Of a DNA stretch of 27,040 nt, positions 1-27,040 are shown one piece after another. The position numbers and the translations under genes are program-made. The number at the start of each line of letters is the position of its first letter. Positions within the stretch are counted from its first letter, which is position 1. The notes beneath the pieces are model-generated. The model worked only from the letters and a program-made list of their open reading frames with translations, was not told the origin of the DNA and did no database searches. Source of the stretch: a virus. Lineage: Duplodnaviria > Caudoviricetes. The stretch lies in the IMG/VR virus record IMGVR_UViG_3300012942_000120, positions 1-27,040 of that record. One strand, written 5' to 3'.

Positions 1-573
1 CACACTGCCTGTCGGCGCGCCTCCGAAATTGCCCCACGACGCGAAGTTTCCGGATTGTTGCAGCAGATTCGTTCGCGGCGTCGCATACAGCAGTTGCCTG
101 CCTTGCCAGTCGGTGCGGTAGATCGACTGGACGTCAATCGCCTGATTGACTGGCTGACCATTGGGGCCAACGAGCTGGAATGCCTTCGTAGCGCCATCGC
201 CAGCGCCAAATTGCTGGTTCTCGACCGTTATGTCCGTCAGAAAGTTTGCCGCGTCCAGATACCTCGCCAGCGTGCGGCGGCGGCGTACCGTGGCACCCAC
301 GAGATCATCGAGATAGACGCACAGCGCCGAGATCGTGCCGTTGATGTCGCCGACGGTTAGCGTTGGCGAGGGCTGCTGCGCGTCCGTCGTGCGCATGAAT
401 CCCGTCGCCTGAATCGGCCATGGCTTGTATTCGTTATCCTGCCACCAGATCGATGCAGACTGCAGATGTCCATGGAAGCGCAGCATGTCGCCGCCGATCG
501 CCGTGCAATCGACTTCGAATAGCTCGATGAGCGCGCCGGGCTCTAATTGTTGTACGTCTGCTGTTATCGGCAT
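1..573 (-). CDS. Minor tail protein L (lambda gpL-like), runs off the left edge; carries a non-gpL segment after residue 111
   Basis: Hand translation from ATG 573 (overlaps the TGA of the upstream gene): [36 protein letters not shown]...[11 protein letters not shown]...[16 protein letters not shown]...[15 protein letters not shown], a typical gpL N-terminal half. Open to position 1. Not in the ORF track because there is no stop. Confidence 0.88.
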
Positions 574-1850
574 CAGGCGTACTCGTAAATCAGGATGTAG
601 CCAGGGGACGCCGATCCACCCGCCAGCGCGTTCTGGCTAGCACCAAGCACAGTACCGCCGCCGCCTGCGCCGCGGCCCGAGGCCGCGCCACCCGTTACGC
701 CCGCACCTCCGACCCCGCCAGCGCCGAGCGCGCTTGTCGCGCCGTTTCCCAGCGAGTACGTAGCACCCGCTACCGAAAAAGCACTCGACCCACCAGGATT
801 TCCGCTGGTAGCAATTAGTGCTGTGCCTACCTTCAATACCACGCCGCCGCCAGCGGAGGCTGCAGCTTGCGGGGATGAGGTAGGACCGCTAATACCGCCG
901 CCAGGCCCGCCTGTGCACGTACAGATAGACCCGTTAGTACCGAATGAGGTGTTACCCCCAGTAGTACCTACGTTCCCTAGCGCGCCTGCGCCCGGCGCGC
1001 CAATAGTCAGCGCAACATCGCCTGAGACCGCGGCAGCGTCAATCTGCGCGGCAGTAAGCAGGTATCTTGCGAAGCCTCCACCGGCACCGCCCGATCCCGC
1101 AGCCCCCTGATTTGCGCCAGTTTGGGGACAACCGCCGCCGCCACCACCACCACCGACTTGTTCCACAATGGCAAACGTGAGCGCGGCATTGCGCGTATAA
1201 GACGCGGCACCCACAGTGCCAAACGCCTTCACGCCCAACAAGCGGCCGGTTAGCGTGGCCGGGTTAAAGTTTCCGAGATCCCACGGAGGATTTCCATTGA
1301 ACGTAGGGCGAACGGGGAACGCTACAGGATTCTCCGGGGTTGTATTAAGGATATTGCCGCCCACCGATAAGGTGCCGCCGACCGTCTCGTTTCCGGCTAC
1401 GGTGCAATTGCCGTTGACTACTTCGTTGTCTGAGTTTGTGCGACCGCGCATTAGGACGGTCCACGCATGCACGCCGTCCGAGTCCATCAAGGCTGCCTCG
1501 CCCGGGTTGAGCGCGGACAGCGCTACCGTATCGCCAGAGCCCGTTCCGATTGCCAGGGTGATGACCGTTGTCCCGACGTTGCGCAAATGGATGATCCCGT
1601 CCGCGCCACACGATGCCGCCGTCGGCATCTGCACGATGCCAGCTGAGGCGAGCGCAATATTGACACGCTTTCCAAGGTGCAAAGCCGCGGTGAGCGCCTG
1701 AGCGGCAGTGATTGGTGCCGCACTCGTGAGCGTGGCCTGTGCATTGAGCACTGCCATATTCGAATTCGTCTTCGCGAAGCCAGTCCGAACGGGATCGCCA
1801 TCGGTGGCCGCCGGCGCGGTCCCGAGATTTACAGTCTGGAGTGCAGTCAT
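573..1850 (-). CDS. Gly-rich tail fibre/tail accessory protein
   Basis: 425 aa between gpM and gpL. N-terminal [22 protein letters not shown] motif is common at phage tail-fibre starts. C-terminal Gly-rich domain (VGGGGGGGG...GAGGGG...GYILIYEY). Confidence 0.7.
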
Positions 1851-18910: not shown

Positions 18911-19911
18911 GCTGCCTCCGCGTGCGCAACCTGTTCGCGCGGAACGTCGTTGAAGTACGCGTAGAGCTGGATGTACACGCTCTCGGTGTCCTTGACGGAG
19001 CGCAACATTTCCTCCATCCATTCGCCAGGACCCGCGGCCTTGTACACGCGCGCCTTGAATCGCTGGAAGTGCTCGTCTGGCCGTTTCTCGATTCCAAGCT
19101 GTTTGGCGCGCGAGTCGATACCGCTCACCGACTTCCACCAGTCGGGTACAATCGACTGACCGGACGATACGGCAGGCGAATCGGCGCGGAGCGGAAACAG
19201 GCCTGTCCAGCCGCGCAACACCGCTTCGTCGATGCACGCCGCCGGCTCGTGGCCTAGCTCGCGCAGCTTCGCAAGTCGTCGGACAGACACACTCGCCGCC
19301 GGCCTCGTCCATGGTGCCGATTTCTCGGCAGCCTTCGCCTCCCGGTGTTCACACCAGTCGTGCCAGGCAGATCGTGGTAGCCAATCGGGTAAATCGAATT
19401 CGCGAAGTTCGACATGCAACGCAACTCGCGGCGCACGCCGCGCAGGTTGACGGTTCTCTGACGGTTCCATGGTGGTTCCTGACGAGTCGGGTGCAAAGCT
19501 ATTGCACCCTTTAGCGTCGTCATTTGCACCCTTTGTTGCGCCGTTTGCACCCTTTTCGTCGCCGTTTGCACCCTTCTCATTCGGTGCAGAATCTGCGCCC
19601 TTTGAGCCATCTGAAATGGGTGCAAGGTCTGCGCCCTTTATCCAGTCTGGATTGATGCGATATTCGCGGGCACGTCCACGTCCGCCACCTTGGTTCGCAA
19701 CAAGGATCAGCCAGCCCCGTTTGAGCATTCGTTTGATTTGGTATTGCACCGCGCGCTCAGACTGGCGCGTTTTTGCCGCCATCGTTTCGATGCTGGGAAA
19801 GATATGCGTGCCGTCGTCGTCTGCGTAATCTGCCAACTTCAAAGCCAGATTGAGCTCGCCACCACCTTCGGGGTATCGGTCCCACACCTTGTCCATTACC
19901 TTGATGCTCAT
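18907..19911 (-). CDS. Replication initiator (lambda O-like, N-terminal HTH)
   Basis: LKLADYADDDG..IFPSIETMAAKT..SERAVQYQI, internal iteron-derived KGAN repeats, C-terminal LPDWL...W..W..HR...GWTGLF. Confidence 0.85.
   Translation of the reverse strand: MSIKVMDKVWDRYPEGGGELNLALKLADYADDDGTHIFPSIETMAAKTRQSERAVQYQIKRMLKRGWLILVANQGGGRGRAREYRINPDWIKGADLAPISDGSKGADSAPNEKGANGDEKGANGATKGANDDAKGCNSFAPDSSGTTMEPSENRQPARRAPRVALHVELREFDLPDWLPRSAWHDWCEHREAKAAEKSAPWTRPAASVSVRRLAKLRELGHEPAACIDEAVLRGWTGLFPLRADSPAVSSGQSIVPDWWKSVSGIDSRAKQLGIEKRPDEHFQRFKARVYKAAGPGEWMEEMLRSVKDTESVYIQLYAYFNDVPREQVAHAEAA
19489..19638. repeat. Iterons of the putative replication origin
   Basis: TTGCACCCTT at 19502, 19524, 19545, 19566 (21-22 bp period), CTGCGCCCTT at 19593 and 19629, and inverted GGTGCA halves at about 19490, 19583 and 19619. 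Confidence 0.85.
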
Positions 19912-21225: not shown

Positions 21226-21666
21226 TTACTCCGCCATGCCGCGCAGGCGCGCAGCGATGTTGAACAGCACCTGCGCGTGCTTGAAAATGCGGCCTTCCAC
21301 GCGCTCCACTTCCTTATGCTCGACGCGGCCATCCTCCAGCGTCTTGCAAATTTCCTTGCCTACCAGCCCGTGTGTCGACCAGGCTTCGCCCATCAGCTCG
21401 ACGATCGCGGCGTCGGTACACCCTTCCACGTCCGGCAGATGAACGAGCGCATAGCCCCGATCGCGCGCCCATGCCTCAAGAACGCGGTCGTCATCGGCCA
21501 TGTCCGTGATCTGCACGGCGTCCATCAGCGTGGCCTTGTGCGTATCCGTGTTCGGATTGACCTTGCTCCGCAGCACGGCCGCGGACATGCCGAGGCGTGG
21601 CGCGAGTGATTCGCAGCCGCCTTTGTAGTCGTGCGCAACCGCGCGAAGAGTGTCAAGGATGTTCAA
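21226..21666 (-). CDS. Phage regulatory CII-family protein
   Basis: TTG start at 21666 with GGAG RBS. (M)NILD...AHDYKGGCESLAPRLGMSAAVLRSKVNPNTDTH...LEDGRV..KE. Confidence 0.8.
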   Translation of the reverse strand: MNILDTLRAVAHDYKGGCESLAPRLGMSAAVLRSKVNPNTDTHKATLMDAVQITDMADDDRVLEAWARDRGYALVHLPDVEGCTDAAIVELMGEAWSTHGLVGKEICKTLEDGRVEHKEVERVEGRIFKHAQVLFNIAARLRGMAE

Positions 21667-21874
21667 TTGCCGCTCCACACAAACGTGTTTTGTCCCCGTC
21701 AGTACAACTAAAGTCACCTTGGACAACAACGAAACGGGAAACAAGAAAAATGAAATCGTCGATGCCGGGCACTACCGGGACTTCGGGTCGCACCAGTACG
21801 ACCTTTTCGGATCGAGGCGCGGGGGCTCGCCTCGCATCCGGTTCGCGTGCTCCGCTCTATGGAGCCGCGCAAAC

Positions 21875-22765: not shown

Positions 22766-23005
22766 TTAGCAAGATGGATTCGCGCGTGCGGCAACTTCCA
22801 CGGTTTGCCGGTCGCCGTTCTTTTCAGAAAGTACGGCGTCGTGCAGCCGCTTGAGTTTTGACATCACCTCGTAGGACACCCGCTTACCCCGTCGCCCTGT
22901 GTGGATCGCGGACACGGTGGACTGATCGACGCCACTCAGGCGCTCAATCTCCATCTGTGTCAATCCGCGCTGCATCAGGTCGGCAATCATCAGTTGAGCG
23001 TTCAT
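22766..23005 (-). CDS. cro: Cro-like HTH repressor
   Basis: 79 aa, GLTQMEIERLSGVDQSTVSAI. Divergent from cI. Confidence 0.85.
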   Translation of the reverse strand: MNAQLMIADLMQRGLTQMEIERLSGVDQSTVSAIHTGRRGKRVSYEVMSKLKRLHDAVLSEKNGDRQTVEVAARANPSC

Positions 23006-23012
23006 GGACACG

Positions 23013-23041
23013 AGAATATTACATTGGGACTTGGATAACAA
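23013..23041 (-). promoter_or_regulatory. PR promoter
   Basis: TTGTTA, 17 nt, TATTCT, then 7 nt to the cro ATG. Overlapped by operators. Confidence 0.65.
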
Positions 23042-23078
23042 GTCCCAATGGAATGGCGCGATCAATTACGATTGCAAT
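23018..23078. promoter_or_regulatory. OR: three 14-bp operators plus the PRM -10
   Basis: ATTACATTGGGACT (23018-31), AGTCCCAATGGAAT (23041-54), ATTACGATTGCAAT (23065-78). Consensus ATTmCA-NN-TGkAAT. TACGAT at 23067-72 lies 6 nt before the cI ATG. Confidence 0.8.
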
Positions 23079-23780
23079 ATGAAAACTTTGGCGGAAAGAG
23101 TTAAGGCGCGCCGCCTGGAGCGGGGCATGACGCAGGGCGAGCTCGCAAAAGCCGCGGGCGTATCGCAATCGACGATCGCACACGTGGAGTCCGGCCGAAA
23201 TGAGGGTACGAAGCACATCGCCAAGATTGCTCGCGCCCTTAATGAGACCACCGAATGGCTCGACGGACCGGCAAAAAATTCTAACGCTCGATCAAGGCCC
23301 GCAAAGTCCGGTAATTCCGACGTTCAGCCTCCATCACCTTTGCAGTATCCTGTCAGCACAAAGAATGTGCGTCATGTGTTCGTCATAGGGCGCGCTCAAG
23401 CAGGACTACCTGAGAGAATTTGGACTGACGGGGACTATCCAGTGGGGGCAGCAAACGAGTACGCGGAAATAGCCACTGGCGATAGCCAGGCCTTTATAGT
23501 TCCGGTGGTTGGCGACTCAATGTCTCCCAAATACGAGCCGGGTGAGTTTGCGCTTGTCGAACCGGAGACTCCGCCAGAAGTCGGCGAGGACGTTCTCGTG
23601 AGGCTCGCGGATGGGCGGACGCTCTTAAAGCGTCTTTATCGGCGCTTGGGCGCGGTGATCGTCCTGAAGAACCTGAACCCCTCTAAGGCTGAGGAATTTT
23701 CGTTCGAGCCGAACGAGGTCACGTGGATGTATTACGTTGCTCACCCCGTGCCAGCACGAAAAATAAAAATGCGCATGTGA
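23079..23780 (+). CDS. cI: CI-like repressor (XRE HTH plus S24 autopeptidase)
   Basis: MKTLAERVKARRLERGMTQGELAKAAGVSQSTIAHVESG, AQAG cleavage site, GDSM (Ser), LKRL (Lys). Confidence 0.95.
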   Translation: MKTLAERVKARRLERGMTQGELAKAAGVSQSTIAHVESGRNEGTKHIAKIARALNETTEWLDGPAKNSNARSRPAKSGNSDVQPPSPLQYPVSTKNVRHVFVIGRAQAGLPERIWTDGDYPVGAANEYAEIATGDSQAFIVPVVGDSMSPKYEPGEFALVEPETPPEVGEDVLVRLADGRTLLKRLYRRLGAVIVLKNLNPSKAEEFSFEPNEVTWMYYVAHPVPARKIKMRM

Positions 23781-23894: not shown

Positions 23895-24545
23895 ATGACA
23901 AAAACAGCTATTGCCGTTTGCCTCGGGGCGGTGGTCCTTTCGGGCTGCTCGATGGCATGGGGCGTTCATCAGTCACTCCCGTATGCACCGCAAGTAAGCG
24001 GCGCACTCAGTACATCTGGGCATGTGGATGTGTATCGCGACGGCGATCGACCGCGGCGGCCCATCATTCTCATTGCAAAGTTGGGCGCGAACGGCAACGG
24101 GTATGCCACAGACGACACGCTCGTGAAAACGCTCGTCAAGGAAGCGCAGAAGGTGGACGCGGACTGTCTCGTCATCACCAATAGCTCGGTCTCAAGGGAT
24201 GAAACCGTTGGATCCTATGGGGGCGGCCTGCTCTTCACAAGCCAGATCAAGCGCCCTCACCTATATGGCATAGCTTGCAAATATTCGAAAGTGATCGCCG
24301 GCTTGAATGCAGATAAGAACGGGCTGGTGGGTTACGTTCCGAGCGGCACCCCAGCCGCCCGCGCGGGCATCGTCGAAGGGGACAAATTGCTGGCCCTAAA
24401 TGGTGAGGCAATCACAAGTTCGCCCTACGTCGCCGAGCGGGAGGTCTCGCTCAAAAGCCCTGGCGACAAGGTGACAGTTGATTACCTGGATAAAAATGGG
24501 GAAAAGCACACCACAGTGCTGACTCTCGACGCCGCTCCGCAATAA
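23895..24545 (+). CDS. PDZ-domain lipoprotein (immunity-region moron)
   Basis: Signal peptide with lipobox LSGC. C-terminal PDZ (GTPAARAGIVEGDKLLALNG...PGDKVTV). N-terminal domain with LVKEAQKVDADCLV. Confidence 0.8.
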   Translation: MTKTAIAVCLGAVVLSGCSMAWGVHQSLPYAPQVSGALSTSGHVDVYRDGDRPRRPIILIAKLGANGNGYATDDTLVKTLVKEAQKVDADCLVITNSSVSRDETVGSYGGGLLFTSQIKRPHLYGIACKYSKVIAGLNADKNGLVGYVPSGTPAARAGIVEGDKLLALNGEAITSSPYVAEREVSLKSPGDKVTVDYLDKNGEKHTTVLTLDAAPQ

Positions 24546-25580: not shown

Positions 25581-25751
25581 ATGCACATCCTGTTTCCATG
25601 CTTAATAGTCCTCATTGTTTTGGTCGTTGGGTTCTCGATGGGATTCGTAGCGGGGTCCTTCTGGACTGCAGTTGCGCGGGTTGATGACTTCGGCCGGGAT
25701 CGTAGCTCGATGATGGACGACGCAGCACCCTATCCGCGCGCGTGGGAGTGA
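25581..25751 (+). CDS. Small single-TM protein (56 aa)
   Basis: AAGGAG RBS. MHILFPCLIVLIVLVVGFSMGFVAGSFWTAVARVDD... Confidence 0.65.
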   Translation: MHILFPCLIVLIVLVVGFSMGFVAGSFWTAVARVDDFGRDRSSMMDDAAPYPRAWE

Positions 25752-25755
25752 ATGC

Positions 25756-26055
25756 ATGGGCTGCCATGTCCGTTGCCGCCATTGCGAGGCACGCCGCTGT
25801 CTTAAAAGAAACCCGGAGCAGTACGAGCGCTGCCCCCCCTGCCGCGTGTGCGGGCGAACGAATTGGCGTGTGGATCGGTGGATGAATCGACGCAATACGA
25901 CGCTGACAGCGTGCGCGTGCGCCGGTTACTGGTTTCCACATCGGCGCGGGTCGCTGTTCTGCTGGCATCGAGCAGATGGTTCAAATCGATTCCCCGGTGA
26001 TACGGATTTTGCAGACCGCAACTACGAGCCCGAATTGAGCGACGCAGTTGCATAG
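25756..26055 (+). CDS. Cys/His-rich putative Zn-finger protein
   Basis: RCRHC...PCRVCG...WRVD...CACAGYWFPHRRGSLFC. Confidence 0.75.
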   Translation: MGCHVRCRHCEARRCLKRNPEQYERCPPCRVCGRTNWRVDRWMNRRNTTLTACACAGYWFPHRRGSLFCWHRADGSNRFPGDTDFADRNYEPELSDAVA

Positions 26056-26150
26056 CCGAGTAGTACCGCGGCGCGGGGAGGCTCCTGTGTTGCGGCGTGT
26101 TTGGCCGGCGCCCGTCCGGGCCAGTCCTTTTTCATCCCATAGGAGAAGTC

Positions 26151-26504
26151 ATGCAACAAATTCAGATTCCACCGCTCGCCGAGGGTGAGGTCTATATCGG
26201 TGCCATCGGTAACAAGACCGGCGATGTCGAGCACATCATTCTTCTGCCCGGCGACAACGATGGAGCGACATGGCAGGCGCAAATGGATTGGGCGAAGTCG
26301 CTCGGTGGCGACCTCCCGAATCGCATTGAACAGGTGATGCTGTGGTCCGCTCATCGCGACCTGTTTCAGAAGGAATGGTACTGGAGCAACGAGCTCGATG
26401 AAGACGGCTGGGCCTGGTGTCAGGACTTCACCCGCGGCTACCAGAGCTACGGCGGTCAGTACGGCGAGTTCCGCGCCCGCGCCGTCCGCAGATTGCCCAT
26501 TTAG
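26151..26504 (+). CDS. DUF1566 (Lcl C-terminal, C-type-lectin-like) protein, putative DGR target 1
   Basis: AGGAG RBS, 117 aa. W..QMDWAKSLGGDLPNRIE...WYWS...AWCQDF..GYQ......EFRARAVRR. Confidence 0.88.
   Translation: MQQIQIPPLAEGEVYIGAIGNKTGDVEHIILLPGDNDGATWQAQMDWAKSLGGDLPNRIEQVMLWSAHRDLFQKEWYWSNELDEDGWAWCQDFTRGYQSYGGQYGEFRARAVRRLPI
26406..26495 (+). repeat. Putative DGR variable repeat VR1
   Basis: 90 nt, 74/90 identical to 26810-26899, with all differences at codon positions 1-2 of NNY codons. Confidence 0.8.
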
Positions 26505-26542
26505 TCGTTTATCAATTCGTAAGCATTCCAAAGGGGATGACG

Positions 26543-26908
26543 ATGCAACAAATCCAGACTCCGCCGCCCGCCAAAGGCGAGATCTATCTTGGCGGCTTCG
26601 TCGACGCAAACGGCGACGTCATGCATACGATCCTGCTGCCGGGCGACAACAAGCCGGCCACGTGGCAACAGCAGATGGAGTGGGCGAAAAGCATCGGCGG
26701 CGATCTGCCGACGCGCGCCGAGCTGGTCATCGCGTACGAGAGGCATCGCGATCAGTTCAAGAAAGCCGCCTACTGGTCGAACACGCCCGACACGGATCCG
26801 GGCTATTCCGGCTGGGCCTGGTGTCAGCGCTTCAGCATCGGCTACCAGTACGGCAACGCTCAGAGCTACGAGTTCCGCGCCCGCGCCGTCCGCAGATTGT
26901 CGATTTAA
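26543..26908 (+). CDS. DUF1566 protein, paralogue, putative DGR target 2
   Basis: AAGGGG RBS, 121 aa. WAKSIGGDLPTRAE...AYWS...AWCQRF..GYQ......EFRARAVRR. Confidence 0.88.
   Translation: MQQIQTPPPAKGEIYLGGFVDANGDVMHTILLPGDNKPATWQQQMEWAKSIGGDLPTRAELVIAYERHRDQFKKAAYWSNTPDTDPGYSGWAWCQRFSIGYQYGNAQSYEFRARAVRRLSI
26810..26899 (+). repeat. Putative DGR variable repeat VR2
   Basis: Second copy of the 90-nt repeat (see VR1). Confidence 0.8.
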
Positions 26909-26937
26909 TCCTTCAGCCATTTACAACGGAGCATCGC

Positions 26938-27040
26938 ATGACGATCACGCTTGAACAGATCAAGGCGGATCACGCGCGCATCGGCGCGGTGATCGAAGCC
27001 TTCCGGAAACAGCAGCGCGCGACCGAGTATCGCGTCGCCG
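26938..27040 (+). CDS. Hypothetical protein, 5' part (possibly a third target gene)
   Basis: GGAG RBS. MTITLEQIKADHARIGAVIEAFRKQQRATEYRVA, runs off the window. Confidence 0.6.
   Translation, partial: MTITLEQIKADHARIGAVIEAFRKQQRATEYRVA

Follow-up and report, generated by a model that had tools for sequence, protein, structure and literature searches.

A likely multi-target diversity-generating retroelement with small early-operon targets in a lambdoid temperate phage

Background

Diversity-generating retroelements (DGRs) of phages are known as host-range switches that act on tail fibres. The cassette of phage BPP-1 has the gene order mtd-avd-TR-brt and a single tail-fibre target, and a GC-rich hairpin that follows the variable repeat (VR) is required (PMC3240598). 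A potential DGR is also carried by the Burkholderia cenocepacia phage Magia (MT701587), in which gene 44 encodes the reverse transcriptase (RT), gene 45 encodes Avd, and genes 47 and 57 are targets (PMC7883833). The DiGReF collection includes multi-VR DGRs in Burkholderia, Ralstonia, Collimonas and Pseudogulbenkiania (PMC3521204, Table 2). In the survey of Wu et al. 2018 (PMC5758913), DUF1566 proteins with CLec2 VRs constitute category 'd', of which Legionella LdtA is an example; about half of this category consists of short proteins with DUF1566 only, and about 15% of DGRs have several targets. Multi-target cases with DUF1566 are also given by Yan et al.

The locus described here is at the end of a stretch of 27,040 bases (the window), which is a complete virus record and ends there. 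We regard its DGR as real and probably intact, with multiple targets and of the Magia type. As in Magia, the order is target(s)-avd-TR-RT within an early-left operon between repressor and integrase, across a junction that we infer, and the target family is shared, including short targets plus a target extended at its N terminus. In contrast, the tail of Magia is sheathed and its third target lies apart, 7 kb upstream, whereas this phage has a sheathless, lambda-type tail tube and three tandem paralogues. The element also resembles the multi-VR elements of DiGReF in having two to four paralogous targets that appear to be rewritten independently from one template; sections 13-14 of that report (PMC3521204) give such elements without phage context or function.

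The likeness to BPP-1 comprises adenine-only changes, an AAC-rich template, and the gene order. However, the single tail-fibre target and GC-rich hairpin of BPP-1 (PMC3240598) are replaced here by several small early genes, a row of T pairs spaced by 8 bases, and a template inside the RT frame. Unlike tropism-switching DGRs of the BPP-1 type, this locus has as targets early-operon proteins of 117-121 aa and not a tail fibre. LdtA, a surface lipoprotein, is encoded by a chromosomal element, whereas the window targets are signal-less products of phage early-operon genes. Also, unlike the conflict-system sensors of clade 5 described by Dore et al. 2024 (PMC10907252), which are joined to NTPase or effector domains or lie next to them, the targets stand alone.

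The cassette is already catalogued, in Magia and DiGReF, and this copy adds a member. The interest lies in what the small early proteins may do and in the candidate recipient mark without a hairpin, both of which are common to the whole clade. Here the DGR machinery is directed at multiple tiny proteins of the early operon, and the phages that carry it have unrelated tails. Targeted hypermutation might therefore have a use inside the cell, and cultured phages exist for testing.

Results and discussion

Two gene ends and their paralogues

Target gene 1 (26151..26504, plus strand) is an open reading frame whose translation of 117 aa is a stand-alone protein with a predicted C-type-lectin fold (Lcl_C/DUF1566-like). 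Target gene 2 (26543..26908, plus strand; alternative ATG at 26537) encodes 121 aa with a predicted C-type-lectin fold. Only the start of a third paralogue is present (26938..27040, plus strand), which belongs to the class with an N-terminal extension and is truncated by the contig end. It is identical at 29 of 34 residues to the third target of locus L002, the nearest of the compared loci to the window targets and also to the RT described below.

The original prediction was that the ends of both genes are rewritten by a DGR from one template repeat (TR). Its alignment of 26406-26495 (VR1, plus strand) with 26810-26899 (VR2, plus strand) is gap-free, and a recount agrees that 21 of the 30 codons are identical. 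The nine differing codons (GAC/CGC, ACC/AGC, CGC/ATC, AGC/TAC, TAC/GGC, GGC/AAC, GGT/GCT, TAC/AGC and GGC/TAC) are exactly those listed, and the 16 mismatches fall at codon position 1 (seven) or position 2 (nine) and never at position 3, every one being non-synonymous. Upstream of the repeat, the divergence is ordinary, as had been claimed, with 26 identical, 26 synonymous and 33 non-synonymous codons and one 4-codon gap; 43 of 89 mismatches in this part are at codon position 3. The absence of third-position changes from the repeat has a Fisher p of 1.4e-4, and that of synonymous codons among amino-acid-identical codons a p of 2.0e-5.

The VR pair is the largest direct repeat in the window, and a repeat scan found just these two copies. 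The constant 3' part of VR1 includes an IMH-like run of 14 bases that are all G or C (26471..26484, plus strand), an identical copy of which is found in VR2 (26875-26888). A 14-base run of this kind, ahead of where VR and template begin to diverge, is a further likeness to BPP-1, which has (GC)14 (PMC3240598).

Template and reverse transcriptase on a second contig

The window itself has no match to an RT or to Avd, so the core was sought elsewhere. All 44 templates from other phages have at least two non-adenine conflicts with the window VRs, most often at letter 51, and these conflicts served as the signature of a motif scan. In a metagenome collection, the scan found two records with a common assembly prefix in their names, namely L054 and the contig of the window itself (L055); in viral contigs, it found one record (L053), which is identical to L054. 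L054 is a contig of 4,483 bases with a template on its minus strand (4075-3986).

This template agrees at every position with the 87-letter TR that had been predicted, GGCTGGGCCTGGTrTCAGAACTTCAACAACGGCwACCAGAACAACAACrATCAGAACAACGAGTTCCGCGCCCGCGCCGTCCGCAGA, in which the three ambiguous letters prove to be A, A and G. The expectation that VR mismatches would map only to TR adenines also held over letters 1-87, for 14 of 14 differences in VR1 and 12 of 12 in VR2, and all 16 mismatches between VR1 and VR2 fall on adenines of the L054 template. The first difference between the VRs and the template that is not at an A is at letter 89, so the template end departs from the VRs in the manner of an IMH*. 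Behind the template is an intact reverse transcriptase frame, as had been anticipated, open for 449 codons (Pfam RVT_1, E 1.4e-14), with YVDD and GLPIGNLSSQ motifs and with 84% identity to the annotated Magia RT and 89.9% to that of L002. The Avd gene was recovered in part: its last ~40 bases are on L054, and the rest of the gene would fall in a gap. Beyond the RT are an HNH-like gene, a DUF4224 gene, and an integrase, as expected at the end of an early-left arm.

The gene ends are thus almost certainly genuine DGR targets. The prediction that they are rewritten from one TR is supported by the template and RT on L054, which are likely from the same prophage. Ordinary gene conversion between paralogues, combined with positive selection and involving no retroelement, could make the 3' ends of tandem genes alike; under it one would expect neither a distinct adenine-rich template accounting for all the differences nor a neighbouring RT, and we give it hardly any credence. 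It is refuted by the adenine fit of L054, unless L054 is unrelated and fits by chance.

The window breaks off within target 3, and the first bases of L054 belong to the 3' end of avd. Judging from the layout of L002, an unsequenced gap of ~710 bases would separate them and would hold VR3 and most of avd, and L002 offsets predict the VR of the third paralogue near 27293. Contigs from four runs were compared with positions 25600-27040, a comparison that cannot reveal variation within the population. In run X1, one record is identical over 26879-27040 and extends 272 letters beyond the window end, and a loose end at 26897 matches letters of the L054 template-RT junction. Because the window probably comes from X1, this evidence is not independent. 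In run X2, from another study, one record is identical over 26919-27040 and extends 241 letters beyond. A search for the last 31 window bases in viral contigs found no match.

It is conceivable that the window VRs are orphaned relics and that L054 derives from a different, closely related phage in the sample. Orphans do occur among 52 related loci (14 viral contigs, 5 annotated phages and 33 genome contigs): 45 have most of the RT, 6 of the 51 informative loci have lost template and RT, and the remaining locus is too short for a verdict. Moreover, the run that covers the sequence best contains contigs of several related phages, and no sequence bridges the window and L054. However, the L054 template is free of non-adenine conflicts with either VR, versus at least two for each of the 44 others, and both contigs break where the cassette layout predicts. 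Also, positions that are never A are free of mismatch in the window, as they are in 40 of 42 intact loci versus 2 of 5 orphan loci. Relics are accordingly very improbable, and L054 is very likely to be this phage's own intact core, with a putative physical join to the window.

The family of related loci

The closest genome contigs are from Paraburkholderia, Caballeronia, Burkholderia and Cupriavidus. Pfam calls both bAvd and RVT_1 in the closest relative, L002, and avd was found in relatives also by tblastn. Each template serves one to four VRs within the flanks examined; in 12 loci, a target lies at a distance, 3.5-9.6 kb upstream and on the same strand. Over 101 distinct template-VR pairs from 44 loci, 1203 of 2719 adenines are changed, compared with 12 of 6068 other letters, and none of the VRs contains a stop codon. 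Copies with insertions (L014:10739, L023:8649 and the L033 template) were missed by the ungapped repeat scan and are excluded from the counts.

By the established BPP-1 mechanism, which we infer to operate here, the RT, together with Avd, would make cDNA from the template RNA with errors at adenines, and this cDNA would be written over each VR separately. Rewriting in the family finds support in near-identical phages whose differences are confined to template adenines. Among 15 gene pairs with zero or one difference in 240 upstream bases, which are related and not independent, 14 differ at 5-16 VR letters, all of them at template A. The DGR family is therefore active.

The Magia template explains its three VRs with adenine changes only. 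One of these VRs is in gene 46 (L015:12163-12627), which is annotated as hypothetical and whose VR differs from the template at 11 adenines only; Magia thus has three targets, not two. The Magia and L054 templates differ at six positions that are not adenine-compatible.

Several members of the family have unusual features. Six cassettes are orphaned, with VRs that lack a template or a whole RT (L008, L020, L034, L036, L044 and L049); L008 and L036 keep just an avd fragment, and L020 keeps just the last part of the RT. The VRs L014:10739 and L023:8649 have insertions or deletions beside AAC-derived codons. In the L006 template (L006:11392-11481), G replaces several adenines, and one VR nearly equals the template, as would be seen if the template had been overwritten by a mutated copy. 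The L018 and L019 records (cassettes at L018:1842-1931 and L019:12275-12364) are each 47,902 bases and are filed under Shewanella and Tenericutes hosts, which look doubtful. Both have a Burkholderia-type cassette with identical upstream DNA, and their VRs differ from the template at 14 adenines versus none. In the distant loci L037-L052, the first target, which precedes the extended target, belongs to a longer class that carries an insertion, which makes the paired layout an old one.

A candidate recipient mark and the overlap of template and RT

Each VR is followed by three TT pairs with a spacing of 8 bases (26500..26517 after VR1 and 26904..26921 after VR2, both on the plus strand), which form a candidate recipient mark. 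This row is found in 94 of 102 distinct VR flanks and in none of 36 template flanks, compared with at most 7 of 102 in 500 shuffles, and it is kept in 25 of the 29 flanks that are less than 60% alike. Rows of TT pairs at spacings of 7, 9, 10 and 11 occur in 6, 7, 2 and 0 flanks, respectively. The L054 template lacks the 8-base row, and three of the nine VR copies without it belong to loci that lack the core. It is likely, from these patterns of conservation, that recipients are told from the template by the TT row past the constant 3' block, with no hairpin involved.

A hairpin as the recipient mark was considered and rejected: the mean folding z over 102 VR flanks is -0.36 (11 are below -2), and none is evident in the window. 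Hairpin-type repeats follow the VR in 34% of DGRs according to Wu et al. 2018 (PMC5758913), so a candidate mark that needs no hairpin is relevant to target finding in the two thirds of DGRs without one. Our literature searches found no paper on a row of 8-base repeats after VRs; one candidate (10.64898/2026.09.22.753630) deals with something else.

Relative to the template frame, the RT frame is shifted by plus one in 45 of 45 loci and runs through the template without a stop. From 99 bases upstream of the template it is open in 44 loci, compared with 4 and 0 loci for the other two frames. A start codon lies between the template and the first RT motif in 1 of 45 loci and inside the template in 29; L054 has neither. 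The RT of this phage would therefore probably be translated across its own template; as AAC runs lack stops in shifted frames and the loci are related by descent, these frames amount to a hint. Cassettes in which the template overlaps the 5' end of the annotated RT frame constitute group 3 in DiGReF (PMC3521204), and the template is described as untranslated by Wu et al. 2018 (PMC5758913).

Fold and variation of the target proteins

Pfam Lcl_C (DUF1566) matches target 1 at 19.9 bits (E 9e-4) and target 2 at 26.7 bits (E 7e-6), both below the curated cut-off of 34.9, and ESM Atlas clusters named DUF1566 were matched at 0.98-0.99. An AlphaFold2 model of target 2 has a mean pLDDT of 84, which is lowest in the variable loop region (about 58-72). 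Its best structural match is the C-terminal domain of Legionella Lcl (8q4e; Z 9.9, rmsd 3.7, 112 aligned), followed by a Bdellovibrio adhesin domain (Z 9.8) and Mtd (Z 6.9). Foldseek searches of PDB and BFVD gave no match at E <= 0.001, and Lcl ranks first at E 0.019. The VR is thus predicted by modelling to be the 3' end of a C-type-lectin-fold target.

A hydropathy window detected no hydrophobic leader and no membrane segment in targets 1 and 2. The third target class has an extra N-terminal extension with a conserved hydrophobic pattern. Complex prediction for target 2 with the third target of a relative gave an uninformative score of 0.01. Only 13 longer homologues were found among 8000 candidates scored, with no recurring extra, effector or anchor domain.

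Nine AAC codons and two codons with a single A would allow, by arithmetic, ~6 x 10^11 protein variants per target. In the family, Tyr, Asp, Ser and Gly account for 547 of 901 AAC/AAT-derived positions. Adenines in the Gln/Glu codons of the VR (three Gln, one Glu) are rarely changed (3/101, 0/101, 1/93 and 1/101), and invariant Gln/Glu-codon adenines, all of which precede G, are changed in 4 of 293 cases. Near-invariance of this kind fits selection on a folded scaffold, or an effect of sequence context on the RT, since all precede G.

Genomic setting and site of action

The window has the layout of a lambdoid temperate phage: the minus strand carries the genes for tail, head and terminase, which are followed by replication, CII and Cro-like genes (CII at 21226-21744 and the Cro-like gene at 22766-23065, both on the minus strand). 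A CI-like repressor with HTH and S24 domains (23004..23780, plus strand; Pfam, PHROGs) places the targets on the early-left side, and short plus-strand genes run from it to the target genes. A gene that resembles PHROGs tail fibre families (573..1850, minus strand) has no VR copy and is 24 kb from the targets. In 28 of the 52 loci, repressor, Cro, CII, replication or recombination markers place the cassette on the early-left side and in none on the reverse side; the other 24 show no early-side marker with the limited queries used. The cassette is found in sheathless phages (the window and L002) and in sheathed phages (Magia and L003). In L002, its operon also contains a Lar-like restriction-alleviation gene and a methyltransferase.

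An intracellular role is preferred because of the early-left location, the occurrence with both tail types, and the remote tail fibre gene that lacks a VR. The products would be small, signal-less proteins of predicted C-type-lectin fold, made from a repressor-controlled early operon. Their most likely place of action would be the interior of the infected cell, where they would form a shifting set of protein binders. The use that we favour is an early one, in which they would bind and blunt host defences or other proteins of the host. Specifically, counter-defence or host take-over is suggested by the timing and by the neighbouring genes (Lar-like, methyltransferases), and is a plausible purpose that falls somewhat short of being probable.

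The targets might instead be receptor-binding adaptors, attached to the virion in trans, through which host range is switched in the way of Mtd in BPP-1. Targets of viral DGRs are mostly tail proteins (Roux et al., PMC8144416), a change of host range was suggested by the authors on Magia (PMC7883833), and the predicted fold matches adhesin tips; indeed, the best structural matches are surface adhesin domains, which would suit an outside role. However, the targets are on the strand opposite to that of the distant tail fibre gene, have no fibre-like or anchor segment, and belong to a cassette common to sheathless and sheathed phages. The target proteins are therefore probably no part of the virion, and virion adaptors are quite unlikely.

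The targets could also be made in the lysogen, where they would sense or block superinfecting phages as a variable immune receptor encoded by the prophage. They are downstream of the repressor, on the same strand and amid recombination genes, which argues against this role. In lambdoid phages, the region downstream of the CI repressor is normally silenced by CI in lysogens. Neither is there a recurring fused effector domain, and the promoter and terminator scan of the window gave no more than chance (one promoter site versus 2.1 expected). Conversely, DGR-varied CLec domains, some of them short and CLec-only, have been proposed as antigen sensors in cellular conflict systems (PMC10907252), and a hairpin with a T run before the first target in several relatives could give the cassette its own control. 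We consider a lysogen sensor unlikely, if less so than a virion adaptor.

A multi-target DGR with its core on L054, whose targets are small putative intracellular binders and whose recipients are hairpin-free, is in our judgement a likely explanation of the whole. A more elaborate version is decidedly tentative: temperate phages of Burkholderiales would carry an antibody-like intracellular repertoire of 2-4 tiny lectin-fold binders, produced early during infection, directed against host defences and each independently rewritten to ~10^11 variants, with the 8-base row as address and the template translated as the front of the RT. Our literature searches found no functional test of such early-operon targets.

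Three further features of the window were observed. A GC-rich stem followed by a T run precedes the first target (26103-26133) and was not called by the terminator scan. The same arrangement before the first cassette target is found in L004, L015, L020 and L021, and it is annotated as a terminator in Magia; perhaps it could make the cassette depend on antitermination. Directly after the repressor is a gene for a PDZ-domain protein with a lipoprotein-like leader (23895-24545, plus strand), which is probably an accessory gene expressed in the lysogen. Finally, three repeats spaced by 21 bases (19508-19575) are within a gene resembling replication initiators and are likely to be origin iterons.
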